IMG/VR virus record: IMGVR_UViG_3300045988_158394
DNA length: 64,000 nucleotides
Origin: a virus
Lineage: Duplodnaviria; Heunggongvirae; Uroviricota; Caudoviricetes
Direction: 5' to 3' (one strand)
Numbering within the stretch: position 1 is the stretch's first letter; the number at the start of each line of letters is the position of its first letter. Under the pieces are notes generated by a model. It saw only the letters and a program-made list of their open reading frames with translations. It was not told the origin of the DNA and searched no databases. The translations under genes were made by a program, and so were the position numbers. This document shows, in pieces, positions 1,608 to 38,668 of the stretch.

Positions 1608-3868
1608 AAGAGCTGTGCTATGGATCTGTTTGCAGTGGAATTGAAGCCGCGAGTATTGCCTGGGAACCGTTGGGTATGCGTCCGGCGTGGTTTGCTGAAA
1701 TCGAGCCTTTTCCATCTGCCGTTCTTGCGCACCGCTGGCCCCATGTCGCCAACCTTGGCGACATGACAAAACTTGCCAAAAAAGTCCTGGCTGGGGAAAT
1801 CGAATCCCCTGATGTGCTCGTCGGGGGAACACCTTGTCAGGCATTCAGTATCGCTGGATTACGTGGTGGGCTTGATGATGAGCGTGGCGCGCTAACTTTA
1901 AAGTATGTGGAGCTTGCAAATGCAATTGACGACAAACGGGCTGAGTCATTTCTCAAACCGACAGTTATCGTCTGGGAAAATGTCCCAGGAGTCCTGTCAT
2001 CGGCAGATAACGCCTTCGGATGTTTCCTTGCCGGATTGGCTGGAGAAGATGCGCCATTTGAACCAGGTGATCGACCTGAATCAGGAAAAAGTAACGCGTT
2101 CTGGCGGTGGGATGGCAAAACCGGTTGCCATGCTCCAAAGTGGCCGCAGTGTGGTTGTATTTATGGACCGCAGCGAAAGGTGGCCTGGAGAATCCTTGAT
2201 GCCCAATACTTCGGAGTGGCACAACGACGCCGACGCGTGTTTGTTGTCGCAAGTGCTCGAACAGACCTCGATCCCGCAACGGTACTTTTTGAGTTCGAAG
2301 GCGTGCGCCGGAATATTGCGCCGAGCCGAAAAAAGAAGGAAATCGCTTCCGCCATTATTGCAAATGGCGCTGCAATCAGTGGCGAAAGCCTAAATCCATG
2401 CCTACACGCTGACATGCCACCCGGTATGAAATCGACGAAAGCCGTAAACGCTTTCAGGATGGCAGCATTTGGGGAATATATTGACGATGAAACCGCATCG
2501 ACAGTAAAGGCAAGAGATTTTAAAGATGCCACTGACCTTGCCGTTTTTAGCAGCACAGGAGCAGGTTTTTGGTCAGAAGGGCATGGTACATTGCGGGCAC
2601 GTGAGCAAGAAAGCCATGAGCATCTTGTTACATTGGCTTTTCCTGAGCGTATGAGCGGTACACAACATGCTGCAACTAAGAATACTTCACCATCTCTAAT
2701 GGCTAAAAATCCAACAGCTGTTTGCTATGAAGTAAGAAACGCAGAAGTAGCTGTCCGCCGTCTTACCCCTGTCGAATGTGAAAGGCTGCAAGGTTTTCCT
2801 GATGGGCATACGTTGATCCCGACGGAAAAGCGTAAAAAAGTTAATTCAGATGAACTGGCATATCTTCGCAATCACTATCCAGATTTAAGCGAAGAAGAGG
2901 CCGCGATGCTTGCATCTGACGGACCGCGTTACAAAGCGATCGGCAATAGTATGGCAATACCAGTAATGCGCTGGATTGGCGATCGGATTACTAAGGCCGT
3001 ATGTCGGCAGAAAGAAGTAAGTGAAACAAAAGAGCGAAAAGTTAAACCAGCGGCAGAATTCGAACGGTCCATATTCAAATGGGCTGGTGGAAAATTTGGT
3101 GTTCTGGAACAAATCTTTCGTTATTTGCCAGAAGGGAAGCGCCTGATTGAACCTTTCGTTGGTGGCGGAGCTGTCTTCATGAATGCCGGATACCAGGAAA
3201 ATCTGCTAAATGATGTGAATGCTGACCTGATTAACTTTTACAAGACTCTGCAACGCGAGGCGCATTCACTTATCACTCTGGCACATCGTTTCTTCCAGGA
3301 CTACAACACACAGGAAGGATACCTGGCAGTACGGAATGCGTTTAACAAACAAGTCTATGATGATTTACATCGCGCAGCGGCGTTTTTGTTCCTGAACCGA
3401 CATTGTTTTAACGGATTGACGCGTTACAACCAGGCCGGTGAGTTCAATGTCGGTTATGGGAAGTATAAAACTCCGTATTTCCCATTACAGGAGATGGAAG
3501 CCTTCCTCGGTGCGGAAGGGTGTTCTGAGTTTGTATGTGGTGATTTTGCTGCGGTGATTGAAGCTGCCGGAGAAGGAGATGTCATTTTTTGCGATCCGCC
3601 ATATGAACCGCTTCCAAATACAGAGGGATTCACGAACTATTCCGGTCATGACTTTAAGTTTGAAGAGCAAAAACGCCTGGTGTCTCTGTTGACGGATGCT
3701 CATCGCCGAGGTGCAAAGGTTCTCATTACTAACAGTGGCGCGCCAAACATCAGAGAGCTTTATCATGACAATGGCTTCAGAGTGGAACCTCTTTTTGCCA
3801 GACGTTCTGTGTCTTGTAAGGGGGACACTCGAGGTGTAGCTCATGACGTTTTGAGTATATTGCTCTAA
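1604..3868 (+). CDS. dmt: Bifunctional DNA methyltransferase (N-terminal C5-cytosine MTase + C-terminal Dam-like N6-adenine MTase)
   Basis: 754 aa; C5-MTase PCQ motif ([12 protein letters not shown]) and ENV motif (VIVWENVPG); C-terminal FVGGGAVF and DPPY (CDPPYEP); size and position match P1 Dmt; GTG start overlapping hrdC stop. Confidence 0.85.
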
Positions 3869-4697: not shown

Positions 4698-5118
4698 GCA
4701 CAACAGGTAAGGGTATTTTGCGACGTCGGAGATCGCCGAGCTTGGCAGAGGGTTCGAATCCCTACGAAGTACCCTTACCGTTGTGATGAAGTGCAGCTCT
4801 TAGAAGCAACCAGAAGATAAGCATCTGGCTTCACAACATAAACCGCAGGAACGACCAATAAACGGTAGTCCGTATGGAGAACACCCCGTTGAGGAAGAGG
4901 CCTGGCCGGAACCGTAACCGGCACTACAACGTTGAGAACATTGGCGTAACGGGGTCATATCCCAATCTATGAATAAATGTTGCGTTGCCGCGTGACAACC
5001 AGTGTTCTCAACATTGTGGTGAATGCACAGGCTGATGTGCCGCAACTACAGTAGTGCGCGCTTTGCGGGGCTTGCTACAACCCTGTGTCGGAGTTCAGCA
5101 CCGACCACCACAATCACT

Positions 5119-5205
5119 GGAGAGTAGGGAGCATGGTGCTCAAGCGGTCTTGAAAACCGTCCCATAGCGCAAGCGATGATGGTTCGATTCCATTACTCTC
5201 CGCCA
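5119..5205 (+). tRNA. Candidate type-II tRNA, Ser(UGA)-like, with atypical short D-arm
   Basis: 7-bp acceptor ggagagt/actctcc + G + CCA; T-arm gatgg-ttcgatt-ccatt; anticodon arm gcggtCTTGAAAaccgt resembling E. coli tRNA-Ser(UGA); long variable arm; D-arm only about 4 bp with a 5-nt loop. Confidence 0.4.
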
Positions 5206-31231: not shown

Positions 31232-32425
31232 GTGACCTGGGACGATCACAAAAAGAATTTTGCTCGCCTGGCGCGAGATGGTGGTTACACCATCGCACAG
31301 TATGCCGCCGAGTTTAATCTTAACCCTAATACCGCACGTCGTTATCTCCGTGCCTTCAAAGAAGACACCAGGACTGCGGACAGCCGCAAGCCAAATAAGC
31401 CAGTCAGGAAGCCACTAAAAAGCATGATCATTGATCACTCTAATGATCAACATGCAGGTGATCATATTGCGGCTGAAATAGCGGAAAAACAGAGAGTTAA
31501 TGCCGTTGTCAGTGCCGCAGTCGAGAATGCGAAGCGCCAAAATAAGCGCATAAATGATCGTTCAGATGATCATGACGTGATCACCCGCGCCCACCGGACC
31601 TTACGTGATCGCCTGGAACGCGACACCCTGGATGATGATGGTGAACGCTTTGAATTCGAAGCTGGCGATTACCTGATAGATAACGTTGAAGCGCGGAAGG
31701 CCGCGCGCGCTATGTTGCGTCGGTCCGGGGCCGATGTTCTGGAAACCACTCTTCTTGAAAAGTCTCTTTCTCATCTCCTTATGCTGGAGAACGCCAGGGA
31801 TACGTGTATTCGCCTGGTGCAGGAAATGCGCGATCAGCAAAAGGACGATGATGAAGGTACTCCGCCTGAATACCGTATCGCGAGCATGCTAAACAGCTGT
31901 TCCGCGCAGATAAGCAGCCTGATCAACACCATTTACAGCATCCGGAATAACTATCGAAAAGAAAGCCGGGAGGCGGAAAAGCACGCTTTGTCTATGGGGC
32001 AAGCTGGCATTGTTAAGCTGGCATACGAACGAAAGCGTGAAAATAACTGGTCAGTGCTGGAAGCAGCTGAATTCATCGAGGCGCATGGCGGGAAAGTGCC
32101 GCCCCTGATGCTGGAGCAAATCAAAGCCGATCTGCGTGCTCCGAAGACCAATACCGATGATGAGGAAAGGCAAACAGCCGTCGGTGGCCCTTCTCTTGAA
32201 GATCTGGACAAAGTTGCGCGAGAACGGGCCGCCAACCGCCGCGCCGATGCCGCATTGTGGATTGAGCAGCGTAGGGAAGAAATCGCCGATATCGTTGATA
32301 CAGGCGGTTATGGAGATGTTGATACTGAAGGTGTATCAAACGACCCATGGCTGGAACAAGACCTGGACGAAGACGAGGAGGAAGACGAAGAAGTTACCCG
32401 CAAGCTATACGGGGATGATGATTAA
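31232..32425 (+). CDS. pacA: Terminase small/pac-recognition subunit PacA
   Basis: 397 aa (the P1 PacA size); contains the pac site; acidic C-terminus; GTG start. Confidence 0.9.
31425..31583. other. pac packaging site (4 + 3 TGATCA/G hexamer elements)
   Basis: Four TGATCA at about 31425, 31432, 31444, 31459 and three TGATCG/A at about 31555, 31567, 31578, each containing a Dam GATC site. Confidence 0.8.
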
Positions 32426-33909
32426 TGGCCAGAAGTTGCGTAACGGATCCACGTTGGCGCGAGCTGGTGGCGCTATATCGTTATGACTGGATTGCTGCCG
32501 CTGATGTTTTGTTCGGCAAAACACCTACCTGGCAGCAGGATCTGATTATTGAGTCTGTGCAGGAACAGGGTAGCAAGACATCTGTTTCGTCTGGTCACGG
32601 TACCGGGAAATCAGACATGACTTCTATCATGATCATGTTGTTCATAATCATGTATCCCGGTGCCCGCGCCATTATCGTTGCGAACAAAATTCAGCAGGTA
32701 ATGACCGGTATATTCAAGTACATCAAGATAAACTGGGCTACTGCCACCAGCCGTTTCCCATGGCTTGCTGATTATTTTGTTCTGACAGAAACCGCTTTCT
32801 ATGAGGTTACTGGTAAAGGTGTATGGACTGTAGTACCGAAGGGCTTTCGTCTGGGAAGTGAAGAAGCTCTCGCCGGTGAACACGCAGATCATCTTCTGTA
32901 TATTATCGATGAAGCCTCCGGTGTCAGTGATAGAGCTTTCGGTATCATCACCGGTGCTCTTACCGGACAGGATAACCGCATCTTATTGCTGTCACAGCCT
33001 ACACGCCCAAGCGGCTATTTCTACGATACTCACCATAAACTGGCCAAGCGTCCTGGTAACCCTGATGGCGTTTATACGGCGATCACGCTTAACAGTGAGG
33101 AATCACCGCTGGTAACGCCAGCATTTATCAAAATGAAGCTGGCGGAGTACGGCGGTCGCGATAACCCTATGTACATGATTAAGGTACGCGGCCTATTCCC
33201 TAAATCACAGGATGGCTTCCTTCTTGGACGTGATGAGGTTGAACGTGCAACGCGGCGGAAAGTCAAGATTGCAAAAGGATGGGGCTGGCTTGCATGTGTG
33301 GACGTTGCTGGTGGTACGGGACGGGATAAGTCCGTTATCAATATCATGATGGTGTCCGGCCAGAGAAATAAACGCCGTGTAATCAACTATCGAATGCTGG
33401 AATACACAGACGTTACAGAAACGCAGCTTGCCGCCAAAATTTTCGCAGAATGTAATCCTGAGCGATTCCCAAATATTACCATAGCGATAGACGGCGATGG
33501 CCTGGGTAAAGCAACGGCGGATCTGATGTACGAGTATTATGGTATTACCGTACAGCGTATACGCTGGGGTAAAAAGATGCATAGCCGTGAAGATAAGAGC
33601 CTGTACTTTGATAAACGTGCTTATGCCAACGTTCAAGCCGCAGAGGCCGTAAAATCTGGTCGTATGAGACTGGATAAGGGTAATGAAACTATTGAGGAAG
33701 CGTCGAAAATCCCTGTAGGGATTAACTCCGCAGGTCAATGGAAGGTGATGAGTAAGGAGGATATGAAGAAAAAACTCAACCTGCACTCACCAGACCATTG
33801 GGATACATATTGTTTCGCTATGCTGGCGGATTATGTTCCCCAGGACGAAGTGCTTAGCGTCGAAGACGAAGCGCAGGTTGATGAAGCTCTGGCATGGCTT
33901 AATGAATGA
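32425..33909 (+). CDS. pacB: Terminase large subunit PacB
   Basis: 494 aa; Walker [10 protein letters not shown], Walker [11 protein letters not shown]; start overlaps pacA stop (taATGg). Confidence 0.9.
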
Positions 33910-33912
33910 ATA

Positions 33913-33929
33913 TTTGCTCTAATAAATTG
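33913..33929 (+). promoter_or_regulatory. C1 operator-like site
   Basis: TTTGCTCTAATAAATTG, 16/17 to consensus, 4 bp after the pacB stop. Confidence 0.5.
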
Positions 33930-33949
33930 TGTTTTTTAACTACCGATGT

Positions 33950-34260
33950 TACATTGAACCTGACCTCTTGCGCCTTGAGGCATTTTCGGTTTATGCTTAT
34001 CAGGCACCTCAGTAAAACGGGTGCCGGGATTGAGACCCCGGATAATGCAAAAGGCGACACAGACGCCAAAAGCGTCTTTTTTTGTGTCATGCCATCGCAC
34101 AGCCATACGTAGCGTTTAGCTCAGAGATCAATGGTAGTGCTGGCTGGGCTGCCGAAAGGCAGGCCGGTTCCCTTTTGCGCCGGTAGTCTCAACCCAGTCA
34201 GTGCTACCGCCATTGAGATTGAGACCTCACGCGGTAGCTCCTTAAATTAGCAAAAGGAGG
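33950..34260 (+). ncRNA. Candidate structured regulatory RNA / leader (c4-like) upstream of the icd-like and ant-like genes
   Basis: Several local hairpins (ggcacc...ggtgcc, ccggg...cccgg, ctgcc-GAAA-ggcag), a tRNA-like tagctcag...ggtag segment, direct repeats of attgagacc and gccattg, and an internal terminator. Confidence 0.25.
34062..34083 (+). terminator. Rho-independent terminator-like hairpin
   Basis: gacgcc-aaaa-ggcgtc followed by TTTTTTT. Confidence 0.5.
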
Positions 34261-34268
34261 CTGCCATT

Positions 34269-34490
34269 GTGGCTACTATCCCTACCCCTGCTCATCCTGA
34301 ATTTATCTGGCGCTTTTACTCCTGCCAAAAACGTCACTATCACTTCGTTATTGCACCGACAGAAGATGAGGCACGTTCTCAGCTTCCGGATGCTCCCTGT
34401 ATTTTCTCTGCCCGCTTTTCTACCGATTCGCGCAATTCTCTCAGTTACTGGTGCCTCCCTGTTAACGCTTCTGCTCAGGAGGGACTATGA
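34269..34490 (+). CDS. icd-like small ORF translationally coupled to the antirepressor gene
   Basis: 73 codons, GTG start 5 nt after AGGAGG; stop overlaps the ant-like ATG (ATGA). Confidence 0.35.
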   Translation: MATIPTPAHPEFIWRFYSCQKRHYHFVIAPTEDEARSQLPDAPCIFSARFSTDSRNSLSYWCLPVNASAQEGL

Positions 34491-35599
34491 GAACGTCATT
34501 AGTCACCCGTGAAGAGATGATCGAGGCAATTGAACAGCACACTGCCTGTATCAGTACCAGGGATATACCGGGCGTTATTGCCAACTACTTCATGATCACC
34601 AAACAACTTTACCGGAGAAAGGACAAACACGCGGTTCACCGCATTCTGCTAACCGATATCCGTGAATACCTGCTCGAACAGGGTCATCTGAATTACGCAA
34701 CCGTCGCAGCCGAAGCACGCAAGGAGGCACACAGAATGAAAGCAACTAACGTTAAATCAGAAAAAATTTATGCACCTTCAGTTCAGGAATCGGAACTGGT
34801 GGTTGTTCAGAATCAGCCGGATGAAATTCCCGTTCTGGAATGGCAGGGAGTACGTGTCGTGACAACCGAAACTCTTGCTAGAGGGTATGGGGTCGATGAA
34901 GCCAATATTCGCAACAATTTGTCTCGCAACCTTGACCGCTTTGAAGCAGGTAAGCATTACTTTCTTCTAACTGCTTTAAAATTAAGAGAATTTAAGAACA
35001 GAGTAACCGGAAGTTACTCTGTTGGTAAGAACGCCAGAAGCCTTACACTCTGGACAGAGCGCGGCGCTGCACGCATGTCTAAGATCGTGGACACAAATGA
35101 AGCATGGGCATTCTTTGAAAAACTGGAAGACAGCTACTTCCGGCAAAAAGAACAGCAACCGGTTGCAATCCCCCAGACGCTTCCAGAAGCTCTGCGCCTG
35201 GCTGCCGAACTGGCTGAACAAAAGCAGCTTCTGGAACAGAAAGCCCACCAGCTAAATCAGCAGCTGGTGGCCGCCGCTCCTAAAGTCGATTTTGCCGACC
35301 GGGTATCAGTAGCTAAAGGGATCCTGATTGGGAATTTTGCAAAGGTTGTTGGACTTAAGCAAAACGCGCTGTTTGCCTGGTTACGGGAGAACGGCATCCT
35401 GATAGCGTCCGGTGGACGTAAAAATGTGCCGTTCCAGCAGTACATCAATGCGGGGTATTTCACGGTGAAAGAAGTGGTGCTGGATGATGAAGATGGCTAC
35501 CAGATACGGTTGACGCCTCAATTAACGGGTAAAGGCCAGCAGTGGTTGACGCGTAAACTGCTCGATGCTGGCTTGTTAAAACCGGTGGCGGCTGAATAA
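34487..35599 (+). CDS. Antirepressor-like protein (ORF6N/KilAC-type N-domain + Ant C-terminal domain)
   Basis: 370 aa; N-domain WQGVRVVTTETLARGYGVDEANIRNNLSRNLDRFEAGKHYF; C-domain VAKGILIGNFAKVVGLKQNALFAWLRENGIL...QQYINAGYF. Confidence 0.55.
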   Translation: MRTSLVTREEMIEAIEQHTACISTRDIPGVIANYFMITKQLYRRKDKHAVHRILLTDIREYLLEQGHLNYATVAAEARKEAHRMKATNVKSEKIYAPSVQESELVVVQNQPDEIPVLEWQGVRVVTTETLARGYGVDEANIRNNLSRNLDRFEAGKHYFLLTALKLREFKNRVTGSYSVGKNARSLTLWTERGAARMSKIVDTNEAWAFFEKLEDSYFRQKEQQPVAIPQTLPEALRLAAELAEQKQLLEQKAHQLNQQLVAAAPKVDFADRVSVAKGILIGNFAKVVGLKQNALFAWLRENGILIASGGRKNVPFQQYINAGYFTVKEVVLDDEDGYQIRLTPQLTGKGQQWLTRKLLDAGLLKPVAAE

Positions 35600-35631
35600 T
35601 GGAAGAATGCCCGGTTGATGCCGGGCATAAT

Positions 35632-36483
35632 TTATTGCGCGCTTTCGGGGTTGTCGTTTACTGGCTGCCCCTTCTTGGTTTTACGGCTGCGCGTAACTGA
35701 TGCGGCTGACTTAACCTTTTTCTCTTCGCGAGTGATGGCAATTTGTTTTTTTACATTTTCAATATCTGCCAGGCGATATATTTTTGCCTGCGGCCAGCGG
35801 TCGCAGATGATCGGTTCTATGGAGTCATAAAGGCTAAATTTTGCTTTTTCGAATTCACCGTTGATGATAATTCCATCACGGAGAGTTTCATCGCAGATAA
35901 ACACGCCACACAGTGGCACATGGTAACTAACTGATTTACCATCATTGTAGTTAGGGCTACTGGAAATGTAGTGGACGCGCAGCATTGTTTCGCTAAAGCC
36001 GTGTACGCGCATACGGAATTTTTCATCCTCCGGGTACTGCCTCATTAGCTCTTTTGTTGCTTCCAGGTTCTCTATGTATTTCGCACTGTGCTCATTGATC
36101 CCCGCGCTTTTTTGGATGCGAATGTCCTTATCAATCAGATGAATAATGCGGCCAGCGGTCATGTTGACGCTGTTCACAGCTTCTGTCTGATAAGTTGTAA
36201 CCTTGCGCACACCGCGAAGGATGTTAGGCACTGGATATAAAATAGTCTTTGGGATATTGAGGTCTGGGTACTGTTCCAGTTCCCGCGCCATTAAAGTCCA
36301 TTTATCAATTTCAGCCTGAATGCTGTCAGTTTCTTTGAACGGTAGAACGACAACCGGGCGTACAGGACGACCGTCGCTGGCTGTATCAACGTGTTGGGCG
36401 CGTGCAACAGCTTTTTTTAGAAAGAGATCCCTGAAGCTGACGAACTCCTGGTACAGTTGTTCGCCGTAGACATAATTTATCAT
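35632..36483 (-). CDS. c1: C1 repressor of lysis
   Basis: 283 aa beginning MINYVYGEQLYQEF, matching P1 C1 in size and sequence as I recall it; lies between pacB and loxP. Confidence 0.9.
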   Translation of the reverse strand: MINYVYGEQLYQEFVSFRDLFLKKAVARAQHVDTASDGRPVRPVVVLPFKETDSIQAEIDKWTLMARELEQYPDLNIPKTILYPVPNILRGVRKVTTYQTEAVNSVNMTAGRIIHLIDKDIRIQKSAGINEHSAKYIENLEATKELMRQYPEDEKFRMRVHGFSETMLRVHYISSSPNYNDGKSVSYHVPLCGVFICDETLRDGIIINGEFEKAKFSLYDSIEPIICDRWPQAKIYRLADIENVKKQIAITREEKKVKSAASVTRSRKTKKGQPVNDNPESAQ

Positions 36484-36577: not shown

Positions 36578-36594
36578 AGATTTATTAGTGCATT
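36578..36594 (-). promoter_or_regulatory. C1 operator-like site in c1 upstream region
   Basis: AGATTTATTAGTGCATT, reverse-complement orientation, one or two mismatches. Confidence 0.4.
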
Positions 36595-36803
36595 TATTGT
36601 GAGTCTAACTGGTTAGTTGCCATGAGATATTCGATTGTGTCAGTGAGGTCATCCAGGTCGTCTTGGGTGATGCGGTACTCCTGATTGGATATCTTTGAGT
36701 AGTGTTCAGCAATGGCGCGGGCAGCGTCGGTTTCGGCAGGGTCTACAGATAAAGCGTTAGAGCAATGTCTAACGTCGTCGATGGTTGGTTGAATGAAAGC
36801 CAT
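36594..36803 (-). CDS. coi: Coi (C1 inactivator)
   Basis: 69 aa directly upstream of c1 on the same strand, the size and position of P1 Coi. Confidence 0.8.
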   Translation of the reverse strand: MAFIQPTIDDVRHCSNALSVDPAETDAARAIAEHYSKISNQEYRITQDDLDDLTDTIEYLMATNQLDSQ

Positions 36804-37636: not shown

Positions 37637-38668
37637 ATGTCCAATTTACTGACCGTACACCAAAATTTACCTGCATTACCGGTCGATGCAACGAGTGATG
37701 AGGTTCGCAAGAACCTGATGGACATGTTCAGGGATCGCCAGGCGTTTTCTGAGCATACCTGGAAAATGCTTCTGTCCGTTTGCCGGTCGTGGGCGGCATG
37801 GTGCAAGTTGAATAACCGGAAATGGTTTCCCGCAGAAACTGAAGATGTTCGCGATTATCTTCTATATCTTCAGGCGCGCGGTCTGGCAGTAAAAACTATC
37901 CAGCAACATTTGGGCCAGCTAAACATGCTTCATCGTCGGTCCGGGCTGCCACGACCAAGTGACAGCAATGCTGTTTCACTGGTTATGCGGCGGATCCGAA
38001 AAGAAAACGTTGATGCCGGTGAACGTGCAAAACAGGCTCTAGCGTTCGAACGCACTGATTTCGACCAGGTTCGTTCACTTATGGAAAATAGCGATCGCTG
38101 CCAGGATATACGTAATCTGGCATTTCTGGGGATTGCTTATAACACCCTGTTACGTATAGCCGAAATTGCCAGGATCAGGGTTAAAGATATCTCACGTACT
38201 GACGGTGGGAGAATGTTAATCCATATTGGCAGAACGAAAACGCTGGTTAGCACCGCAGGTGTAGAGAAGGCACTTAGCCTGGGGGTAACTAAACTGGTCG
38301 AGCGATGGATTTCCGTCTCTGGTGTAGCTGATGATCCGAATAACTACCTGTTTTGCCGGGTCAGAAAAAATGGTGTTGCCGCGCCATCTGCCACCAGCCA
38401 GCTATCAACTCGCGCCCTGGAAGGGATTTTTGAAGCAACTCATCGATTGATTTACGGCGCTAAGGATGACTCTGGTCAGAGATACCTGGCCTGGTCTGGA
38501 CACAGTGCCCGTGTCGGAGCCGCGCGAGATATGGCCCGCGCTGGAGTTTCAATACCGGAGATCATGCAAGCTGGTGGCTGGACCAATGTAAATATTGTCA
38601 TGAACTATATCCGTAACCTGGATAGTGAAACAGGGGCAATGGTGCGCCTGCTGGAAGATGGCGATTAG
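37637..38668 (+). CDS. cre: Cre tyrosine recombinase
   Basis: 343 aa starting MSNLLTVHQNLPALPVDATSDEVRKNLMDMFRDRQAFSEHTWKMLLSVCRSWAAWCKLNN..., the canonical P1 Cre sequence. Confidence 0.97.
   Translation: MSNLLTVHQNLPALPVDATSDEVRKNLMDMFRDRQAFSEHTWKMLLSVCRSWAAWCKLNNRKWFPAETEDVRDYLLYLQARGLAVKTIQQHLGQLNMLHRRSGLPRPSDSNAVSLVMRRIRKENVDAGERAKQALAFERTDFDQVRSLMENSDRCQDIRNLAFLGIAYNTLLRIAEIARIRVKDISRTDGGRMLIHIGRTKTLVSTAGVEKALSLGVTKLVERWISVSGVADDPNNYLFCRVRKNGVAAPSATSQLSTRALEGIFEATHRLIYGAKDDSGQRYLAWSGHSARVGAARDMARAGVSIPEIMQAGGWTNVNIVMNYIRNLDSETGAMVRLLEDGD

Follow-up and report, generated by a model that had tools for sequence, protein, structure and literature searches.

Evidence for an additional ImmI-type, antisense-RNA-controlled antirepressor operon between pacB and c1 of a P1-like plasmid prophage

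The pacB-c1 interval

The window analyzed here is a 64,000-nt stretch of viral DNA (IMG/VR record IMGVR_UViG_3300045988_158394), read here as part of a P1-like plasmid prophage. In P1, the pacB stop codon is followed by a 24-nt spacer and then by the stop codon of the convergent c1 gene, whereas in the window 1,722 nt (33910-35631) exactly substitute for this spacer, and homology with P1 picks up again exactly at the c1 stop codon. An earlier note on this DNA had put about 1.7 kb between the 2 genes and had proposed a comparison with P1 and P7; the extent was correct, and sequence comparison showed that the module is absent from the pacB-c1 position in both references. The inserted segment carries a C1 operator-like site, 2 putative promoters, 2 structured RNAs with their pairing targets, an icd-like gene, and an ant1-like gene, all on the plus strand, and all module ORFs are intact. 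Where the 3' ends of ant and c1 converge, a GC-rich hairpin (35607-35628, not assigned to a strand) with a fold of -18 kcal/mol (z = -3.4) is a likely bidirectional terminator. For a 68-aa ORF annotated in JL22 (33906-34112) and for 2 antisense ORFs (33899-34090 and 33936-34106), no family match was obtained; all 3 overlie the operator, promoters, and isrK and were treated as spurious.

Operator and promoters

The C1 operator-like site (TTTGCTCTAATAAATTG, 33913-33929) starts 3 nt past the pacB TGA, just after the stop codon as the earlier note had it. This 17-mer has 2 mismatches to the consensus, at its ends, and keeps the consensus core. It is one of 15 C1 operator-like sites in the window, where 0.29 would be expected by chance, and is invariant across 28 related loci. 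Alignment with Oc4 of P1 and P7 shows the same orientation and register to the -35 hexamer as in P1 Oc4 (Op51), and the C1 encoded in the window shares 99% identity with P1 C1.

Both putative promoters are weak consensus matches assigned by alignment only. The first, putatively C1-controlled (33927-33955; -35 TTGTGT at 33927-33932, 17-nt spacer, -10 TACATT at 33950-33955), scores under the threshold of the consensus scan and, from its alignment to the annotated P1 promoter, would be the equivalent of P2c4/P51a. The predicted operator overlaps this upstream promoter, as the C1 operator does in P1-type ImmI. The second (33968-33997; -35 TTGCGC at 33968-33973, 18-nt spacer, -10 TATGCT at 33992-33997) would, on alignment with P1, P7, and D6, correspond to P1 P1c4/P51b. 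Its predicted start at approximately 34003-34004 coincides with the isrK 5' end, the isrK model beginning at 34004.

Leader RNA and C4 antisense RNA

The roughly 300-nt structured region described from the letters alone resolved, in an Rfam search, into 2 RNA families. The upstream one is an isrK-type leader RNA (34004-34083; RF01394 match at 34004-34082, 58.2 bits against a gathering score of 50). Its predicted fold has a 5' hairpin and a second hairpin with a1, TTGAGAC (34030-34036), in the loop, and leaves b1, GCAAAAGG (34047-34054), single-stranded. A terminator scan places an intrinsic terminator at its end, with a stem at 34061-34077 followed by a run of 7 T, the T-run reaching 34083, and this accounts for the internal terminator that had been noticed earlier. 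An isrK element ending in an intrinsic terminator is also characteristic of the Gifsy-1 cassette, and the position of a1/b1 upstream of c4 is that of P1-type ImmI, here in an isrK-type rather than a c4-a1b1-type element.

The C4 antisense RNA gene (34127-34214), likewise expected of a P1-type ImmI, is a full-length match to RF01695 (75 bits, gathering score 45) with a predicted fold of -46.4 kcal/mol (z = -5.6). By homology with the mapped P1 ends, the mature C4 is predicted to span 34133-34211. Its b' element, CCUUUUGC (34171-34178), lies within a hairpin loop, and its a' element, GUCUCAA (34186-34192), lies in a single-stranded junction. The acceptor-like stem and 3' GCC overhang are compatible with a predicted release by RNase P. 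This stem with its overhang is the sole tRNA-like trait of the region; a tRNA-like segment had been suggested here, and neither ARAGORN nor the Rfam tRNA model found a cloverleaf in 33910-34270. Overlying C4 is a 39-codon ORF (34131-34250) that matches Pfam Phage_ASH.

Antisense pairing and covariation

The a' and b' elements are perfectly complementary, over 7 and 8 nt, to both a1/b1 in the leader and a2/b2 downstream of C4. The a2 target, TTGAGAC, is at 34219-34225, and the b2 target, GCAAAAGG, is at 34250-34257, where it overlaps the icd Shine-Dalgarno sequence AAGGAGG (34254-34260) in the manner of P1-type ImmI, in which b2 sits on the icd ribosome-binding site. A partial copy of a2, TTGAGAT, is found ahead of it at 34213-34219. 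In the P1/P7 class, b1 is a 7-nt match to b', as annotated in P1.

In 28 related leaders, every pair-cell is paired (420/420), pairing of a2/b2 with a'/b' likewise being 100% with compensatory changes, and double-sided changes are found at 7 of the 15 positions. None of 500 shuffles reached the observed value, and slid controls gave 23-55%. Across 123 C4 copies, comprising 5 a-types and 6 b-types, the three-way complementarity of a1/a'/a2 and of b1/b'/b2 is kept, and 11 specificity combinations were found among P1-like elements. Each specificity switch is a dinucleotide change copied at 3 interleaved sites, and the maintenance of complementarity at 3 sites through several such switches requires selection.

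The earlier note had proposed an antisense-RNA control circuit on the basis of 2 repeat pairs, and only one of them survives. The attgagacc repeats (a1/a2) and gtctcaa (a') are interacting elements by complementarity and covariation. Pairing of caatggtag with ctgccattg, along with the gccattg repeat, has to be given up: in relatives the sequence reads CCAATA or CCATTA, and nothing changes on the other side to compensate. The match of CAATGGTAG on the C4 5' side to CTGCCATTG at the icd start thus shows no covariation, its partner being invariant, and was treated as chance. The main pair, between b' CCUUUUGC at 34171-34178 and GCAAAAGG at 34047-34054 and 34250-34257, had been missed.

The icd and ant genes

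The icd-like gene (34269-34490) has a GTG start and encodes a 73-aa protein that matches the Icd-like family NF033153 (2.6e-13) and is 81% identical to P1 Icd at equal length. Its stop overlaps the ant ATG (34487) as ATGA, in agreement with the previously reported 73-codon ORF whose stop overlaps the next ATG. The ant1-like gene (34487-35599) encodes a putative antirepressor of 370 aa, and domain matches bear out the ORF6N/KilAC-like and Ant-like domains that had been ascribed to it. Residues 1-84 are similar to the N-terminus of P1 Ant1, the stretch 228-368 is a KilAC part approximately 93% identical to P1 Ant1/2, and the domain search returned ORF6N at 116-200 and ANT/KilAC at 258-359. The ORF6N domain, also characteristic of the antirepressor in the Gifsy-1 cassette, is 54% identical to Gifsy-1 AnrP and is here fused to Ant1-like N-terminal and KilAC C-terminal parts. 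The KilAC part is compatible with a predicted binding and inactivation of C1 by Ant; the middle third is unrelated to P1 Ant1, and target specificity could therefore differ.

An in-frame ATG at codon 84 would give a nested, putative ant2-like product of 287 aa (34736-35599). This is the codon used in P1 ant2, and it is accompanied by a Shine-Dalgarno sequence AAGGAGG at 34721-34727 and a conserved RKEAHRM context. As predicted from these signals, both the icd-ant coupling and the nested ant1/ant2 arrangement are those of P1-type ImmI.

The ImmI-like character proposed in the earlier note is thus well founded: an operator on the promoter, C4, a1/b1 and a2/b2, icd coupled to ant, and nested ant1/ant2 starts are all present, all sequence-level hallmarks of the P1 ImmI operon were found, and the curated thresholds were passed. 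Map position departs from that of P1 ImmI, being between pacB and c1 rather than between sim and kilA-repL. We put the probability at about 80% that 33910-35631 is an intact additional ImmI-type immunity/antirepressor operon on a P1-like plasmid prophage, placed in the convergent pacB/c1 gap. Its sequence supports the reading of the interval as an extra copy of the P1 antirepressor operon, under the control of an antisense RNA and with a distinct RNA recognition code.

Distribution and relation to the canonical ImmI

The module occupies the pacB-c1 position in 308 of 558 pacB-bearing PLSDB plasmids (approximately 55%), and RCS47 and JL22 also carry it there. An antirepressor beside its presumed target repressor gene, which had been thought unusual, is therefore common at this site; since about half of natural P1-like plasmids have it, the pacB-c1 module is a real but fairly ordinary feature, always beside c1 in P1-like backbones. 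The "ant" insertion of pTZ20_1P and RCS47 was noted earlier (Venturini 2019, PMC6906374), where one sentence describes it as 2 small ORFs plus ant. Our literature search for a second ImmI found only that one-sentence note, and the JL22 paper does not discuss the module.

The sister plasmid pHNTH9F11-2, which is 99.8% identical, has both this module and a canonical ImmI of P7-type specificity next to kilA-repL, so that the pacB-c1 module is extra and orthogonal. At least in this plasmid, the module is additional and not relocated; for the window, in which the canonical ImmI site is not included, its extra status is argued from the sister plasmid and from IMG/VR contigs. Among IMG/VR contigs with at least 2 modules, 16 of 17 pair a pacB-c1 module with an a1b1-class module elsewhere on the contig, the remaining one having no pacB-c1 module, and most PLSDB matches fall at 2 places per record. 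In 26 of 27 isolate genomes with at least 2 modules, all specificities are different, with no common a or b element.

Comparison with related systems

The ImmI of P1/P7 shares with this module a C1 operator over the upstream promoter and a C4 with a'/b', preceded by a1/b1 and followed by a2/b2, with b2 lying on the icd RBS. A 73-aa Icd, ATGA coupling, a KilAC C-terminus, and codon 84 as the Ant2 start are also common to both. The P1/P7 ImmI differs in its location between sim and kilA-repL instead of the pacB/c1 gap, in its leader (c4-a1b1, RF03163, versus isrK, RF01394), and in its recognition sequences at both a and b. In the module described here, moreover, an ORF6N domain takes the place of the middle of Ant, and icd starts with GTG. 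The ImmI region of phage D6 (c4-icd-ant) has an isrK-C4 leader that is 95-97% identical, with the same a/b specificity. However, D6 lacks the P1-type operator/promoter segment, and its Icd is only 63% identical to the one here. D6 Ant is a Rha-type protein unrelated to the Ant found here; it was considered as a homolog and rejected for lack of similarity.

The isrK-orf45-anrP cassette of Gifsy-1 (PMC4825925) likewise has an isrK leader with a terminator, a C4-family RNA (69 bits in Gifsy-1), and an ORF6N antirepressor, and it shows a1/a'/a2 and b1/b'/b2 complementarity of its own type. It lacks icd, the KilAC domain, and a C1 operator. In Gifsy-1, the stop of the small ORF lying over C4 overlaps the start of the antirepressor gene, whereas the ORF here (34131-34250) ends 19 nt upstream of icd, which is interposed before ant. 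IsrK binding and activation in Gifsy-1 have been shown experimentally (Hershko-Shalev et al. 2016, PMC4825925), and in the model published there the C4 region figures as a coding ORF (orf45) rather than an antisense repressor (PMC4825925). The pacB-c1 "ant" insertions of RCS47, pTZ20_1P, and JL22 represent this insertion at an identical site, with 95-99% sequence identity; RCS47 differs in its b specificity (CCUUUGAC/GTCAAAGG) and its Ant middle allele. Their published annotations do not mark the RNAs, and in JL22 icd is annotated in the wrong frame.

Alternative explanations

The alternative that we take most seriously, although it is unlikely, is that the Ant-like protein is not aimed at C1 and, like AnrP, acts on another repressor or switches on other (pro)phage genes, in which case the module would mediate cross-talk with other elements and not P1 induction. 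The likeness of the Ant middle domain to AnrP and its lack of relation to P1 Ant1 speak for this, as do some deposited annotations that name the protein "DNA binding protein Roi". Against it, the N-terminal 84 and C-terminal 140 residues are P1 Ant1-like, the latter approximately 93% identical, the operon carries a predicted C1 operator, and in P1-like backbones the module is never away from c1. It is rather less probable that this is the only ImmI in the genome, relocated rather than additional. The window does contain a single C4, with the canonical kilA/repL site outside it, but both modules coexist in the sister plasmid, and the paired IMG/VR contigs and the 2 places in most PLSDB records point the same way.

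Of nearly the same low probability is a Gifsy-1-style arrangement in which the C4 region is a translated ORF (orf45/"ash") activated by the leader sRNA, with no antisense repression by a processed C4. The Phage_ASH match of the 39-codon ORF fits this, and a tagged Gifsy-1 orf45 product has been detected (PMC4825925). However, the ORF has only 14 codons in P1, here it stops short of icd with no overlap, the C4 structural model gives the region 75 bits, and only pairing of C4 with the downstream target explains the a2/b2 covariation. Least credible by a clear distance is the view that the module is a duplicate in decay, carried as inert cargo and now without function. Nothing specific favors this beyond the location in a permissive gap between convergent genes, and it is opposed by the intact ORFs, the presence in 308 plasmids, and the three-site complementarity kept through several specificity switches.

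Proposed mechanism

If the module is an additional ImmI-type operon, transcription would start at 2 promoters, the upstream of which, to judge from homologs, would be shut in the lysogen because the C1 operator overlaps it. The transcript would first yield the isrK-type leader with a1/b1 and could end at the leader's own terminator. Read-through would give C4 RNA, which RNase P probably excises, as it does in P1. The a'/b' elements of C4 would then pair, as the covariation suggests, with a2/b2 on the same or incoming transcripts. This pairing would cover the icd ribosome-binding site and block icd translation, which in turn would block Ant synthesis through coupling and polarity. The short leader carries a sequence that mimics the C4 target more closely and would probably titrate C4, an anti-antisense role like that of IsrK in Gifsy-1. 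Where C4 is outnumbered or mismatched, Icd and the Ant1/Ant2-like proteins would be made, and the 93%-identical KilAC part suggests that Ant would inactivate the C1 repressor encoded next door. The recognition code, GUCUCAA/CCUUUUGC, is unlike those of P1, P7, and other types, and the module should therefore work independently of the sister plasmid's canonical ImmI. Besides widening the immunity of the prophage, it should provide the phage with a second route for overcoming immunity in other lysogens.

Implications for P1-like phage-plasmids

A wider reading, to which we give slightly less than even odds, is that P1-like plasmids may carry up to 3 C4/antirepressor cassettes that are orthogonal to one another and belong to a combinatorial code (at least 5 a-types, at least 6 b-types, and 11 combinations), with the isrK-type leader as a built-in anti-antisense sponge, all of this amounting to an arms race over an immunity "barcode". 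On this reading the isrK-class half of the system would be the pacB-c1 cassette, and both "orf45" of Gifsy-1 and the Ash family of Pfam would in reality be genes for C4 RNA. The data join 2 literatures, on P1 C4 and on Salmonella IsrK, on one cassette, and the covariation data offer a ready panel of natural orthogonal antisense/target pairs. If the barcode reading is true, the code decides which P1-like phages coexist with, exclude, or induce one another. Since the P1 and P7 laboratory references lack the module and about half of natural plasmids have it, models of immunity, induction, and coexistence built on laboratory strains are incomplete for field elements. Many module-bearing plasmids carry resistance genes, for example SHV-2 and CTX-M; a second orthogonal antirepressor switch should alter phage-plasmid superinfection and induction, and thereby the spread of these plasmids and their cargo.

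A probable additional ImmI-type module between pacB and c1

The window is from a P1-like (Punavirus) plasmid prophage and carries pacA (31232-32425), pacB (32425-33909) and cre (37637-38668), with c1 (35632-36483) and coi (36594-36803) on the minus strand. In reference P1, 24 nt separate the pacB stop from the c1 stop, and c4-icd-ant1/2 lies about 45 kb from pacB/c1, adjoining kilA-repL. An earlier note described the P1 map correctly in placing c1 after pacB and c4-icd-ant far off. P1 homology in the window breaks off at the pacB stop codon and restarts exactly at the c1 stop codon, and positions 33910-35631 therefore substitute for the 24-nt spacer. The insertion noticed in that note is real, and its ImmI-like reading was right.

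Near the pacB end of the module lies a C1 operator-like site, TTTGCTCTAATAAATTG (33913-33929), which deviates from the consensus only at its two end positions. Across the whole window 15 C1 operator-like 17-mers were found versus 0.29 expected. These sites, with at most 3 mismatches, are scattered (for example at 337, 3859, 19529, 37042, 37125 and 53334), in keeping with the dispersed regulon that C1 has in P1. When aligned with P1 and P7, the operator stands in the same register to a -35/-10 pair as P1 Oc4 does to P2c4. By homology, this pair (TTGTGT, 33927-33932; TACATT, 33950-33955) is the putative P2c4 equivalent, and TTGCGC (33968-33973) with TATGCT (33992-33997) the putative P1c4 equivalent, from which transcription would begin at the isrK 5' end.

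Leader and C4 RNAs

RNA families were called with Rfam at curated thresholds. An isrK RNA at 34004-34082 (58.2 bits against a gathering score of 50) has an intrinsic terminator at its end, with the stem at 34061-34077 and seven T after it. It precedes a C4 antisense RNA (34127-34214; 75 bits, gathering score 45), whose fold (-46.4 kcal/mol, z = -5.6) consists of two internal hairpins closed by a long stem. A 39-codon ORF that overlies the C4 gene along its whole length (34131-34250, plus strand), named "ash family protein" by PGAP, hits the Pfam family Phage_ASH (PF10554) with 29.1 bits against a gathering score of 26; its P1 counterpart has only 14 codons, and the Ash family may largely consist of translated C4/CI-type RNA genes. 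Elsewhere in the window, ARAGORN calls an 87-nt tRNA-Ser(TGA) at 5118-5205 (plus strand), between tRNA-Thr and tRNA-Met genes, where the Rfam tRNA-Sec match is sub-threshold (42.9 bits versus a gathering score of 47); it could be a tRNA with a long variable arm, or else a pseudo-tRNA.

C4 carries b' in a loop (CCUUUUGC, 34171-34178) and a' at a junction (GUCUCAA, 34186-34192). Both are perfect complements of b1 (GCAAAAGG, 34047-34054) and a1 (TTGAGAC, 34030-34036, presented in the loop of a hairpin) in the leader and of a2 (TTGAGAC, 34219-34225) and b2 (GCAAAAGG, 34250-34257) downstream of C4, with b2 overlapping the icd Shine-Dalgarno sequence (34254-34260). This layout is shared with P1, where a1, b1, a2 and b2 are annotated, but the recognition sequences differ. 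The a2-b2 spacer also contains a promoter-like match (34219-34248, plus strand; TTGAGA, 18-nt spacer, TAAATT; 9/12) which, if active, would yield icd-ant transcripts without C4; it may well be a chance match, with 3 such sites in the region versus 1.7 expected.

Related modules were gathered from phages, plasmids and IMG/VR, giving 123 C4 copies in which 5 a-types and 6 b-types form 11 combinations. All copies examined have a1 and a2 tracking a', and b1 and b2 tracking b'; the only exceptions are one type with G·U wobbles and the P1/P7 class, whose b1 is known to match at 7 of 8 positions. Types differ by dinucleotide changes at the centre, as P1 and P7 do. The order a1, b1, b', a', a2, b2 interleaves the two kinds of site, so each switch requires coordinated change at three places. 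Alignment of 28 distinct isrK-class leaders showed both interaction sets paired in 100% of 420 cells, with both-sided changes at 7 of 15 pairs, a level reached by none of 500 shuffles (slid controls, 23-55%). Together these patterns are strong evidence of selection on the RNA-RNA recognition of this module family.

Icd and a chimeric Ant

The icd-like ORF (34269-34490; 73 codons; NCBIfam Icd-like, 2.6e-13) begins with GTG, the start being ATG in most relatives, and its product is 81% identical to P1 Icd and equal in length. Its stop overlaps the ATG of ant, whose 370-aa product has an ORF6N domain at residues 116-200 and an ANT/KilAC domain at 258-359. Residues 1-84 are about 62% and residues 228-368 about 93% identical to P1 Ant1, while the middle is unrelated to Ant1 and shares 54% identity with the AnrP ORF6N domain of Gifsy-1. 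A putative nested start, the in-frame ATG of codon 84 (34736), follows an AAGGAGG and occupies the position of the P1 ant2 start. Among pacB-c1 modules (collected loci L010-L088) the Ant middle (window 34741-35170) is polymorphic, with nucleotide identity classes of about 75%, 86% and 100% or replacement of the segment, and the N- and C-terminal parts are mostly 94-100% identical. A GC-rich hairpin (35607-35628) lies between the convergent ant and c1 ends.

Relationship to IsrK of Gifsy-1

The isrK-C4 tandem is also found in D6 (leader 97% identical), Stx2a phages, phiP27 and APSE. Gifsy-1 likewise has an isrK match, in a region that also scores as c4-a1b1, then a C4 match and then the ORF6N protein AnrP, with its own complementary a/b set and b2 beside the anrP Shine-Dalgarno sequence. 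At 34131-34316 (minus strand) of Gifsy-1 NC_010392, the published "orf45" lies over the C4-family RNA (69 bits), and both of its AUGs fall within the C4 5' stem. Binding of the short IsrK RNA to the "orf45"/C4 region of Gifsy-1, and its activation of antirepressor translation, were demonstrated experimentally (PMC4825925), and on this basis we propose that the leader of the pacB-c1 module would titrate C4. That paper mentions neither P1 nor C4, and the IsrK and P1 C4 literatures seem to have described one cassette type without cross-reference.

Prevalence and coexistence with other modules

In PLSDB, 558 plasmids carry 80% or more of pacB, and 308 of these (about 55%) contain the full query from the pacB end through the module to the c1 end. 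The module occupies the same place in phages JL22 (99.1%), RCS47 (95%) and vB_EcoM-673R5 (88%), and an antirepressor gene with two short ORFs between pacB and c1, "as in RCS47", was reported for pTZ20_1P (Venturini et al. 2019, PMC6906374). Existing PGAP labels of the module genes are Icd-like and antirepressor. The JL22 record (locus L001) annotates a 68-aa ORF across the operator, promoter and isrK (3057-3263; window 33906-34112) and, instead of icd, an out-of-frame ORF of 81 aa that starts with TTG (3418-3663; window 34267-34512).

The sister plasmid pHNTH9F11-2, 99.8% identical over the module and carrying it between pacB and c1, has a second, canonical c4-icd-ant adjoining kilA/repL; the leader of this second copy is of the c4-a1b1 type (RF03163), and its recognition sequences are those of P7. 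Of 17 IMG/VR contigs with at least two modules, 16 combine a pacB-c1 module, always of the isrK class, with one of the a1b1 class that occupies the canonical or a further site. In 26 of 27 isolate genomes with at least two modules the specificities are all different, co-resident pairs having no a or b element in common; the exception is a tandem duplicate. These patterns argue that the module is additional rather than relocated, a status that we infer for the source replicon because its canonical site would lie outside the window. In the IMG/VR contig L017, two tandem copies of the same specificity (2394 and 3960) accompany two other-type modules; they may be a genuine duplication or may reflect misassembly.

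Further cassettes in some other P1-like contigs are inserted near positions corresponding to window 39269/39829 (flanks of L081, L085 and L077 match 39829 and 39269) or 40666 (where flanks of L084 and L073 end). They are c4(a1b1-type)-icd-ant cassettes that lie close to ref/cre, at a distance of 6-7 kb from the pacB-c1 module, with Icd and the Ant N-terminus 94-100% identical to those of the window, which itself has no such third cassette.

The module is a mosaic whose parts are all known: a P1 operator and promoter, a D6/Gifsy-type isrK-C4 leader, a P1-type icd and a chimeric Ant. Our literature search found no paper dissecting the RNAs, operator or specificity of the pacB-c1 module. Since it is common in nature and already in print, it is an uncharacterised example of a known system and not a new one. 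This analysis adds its exact anatomy, proof that the antisense pairing is maintained, its connection with IsrK, and a specificity orthogonal to that of canonical ImmI.
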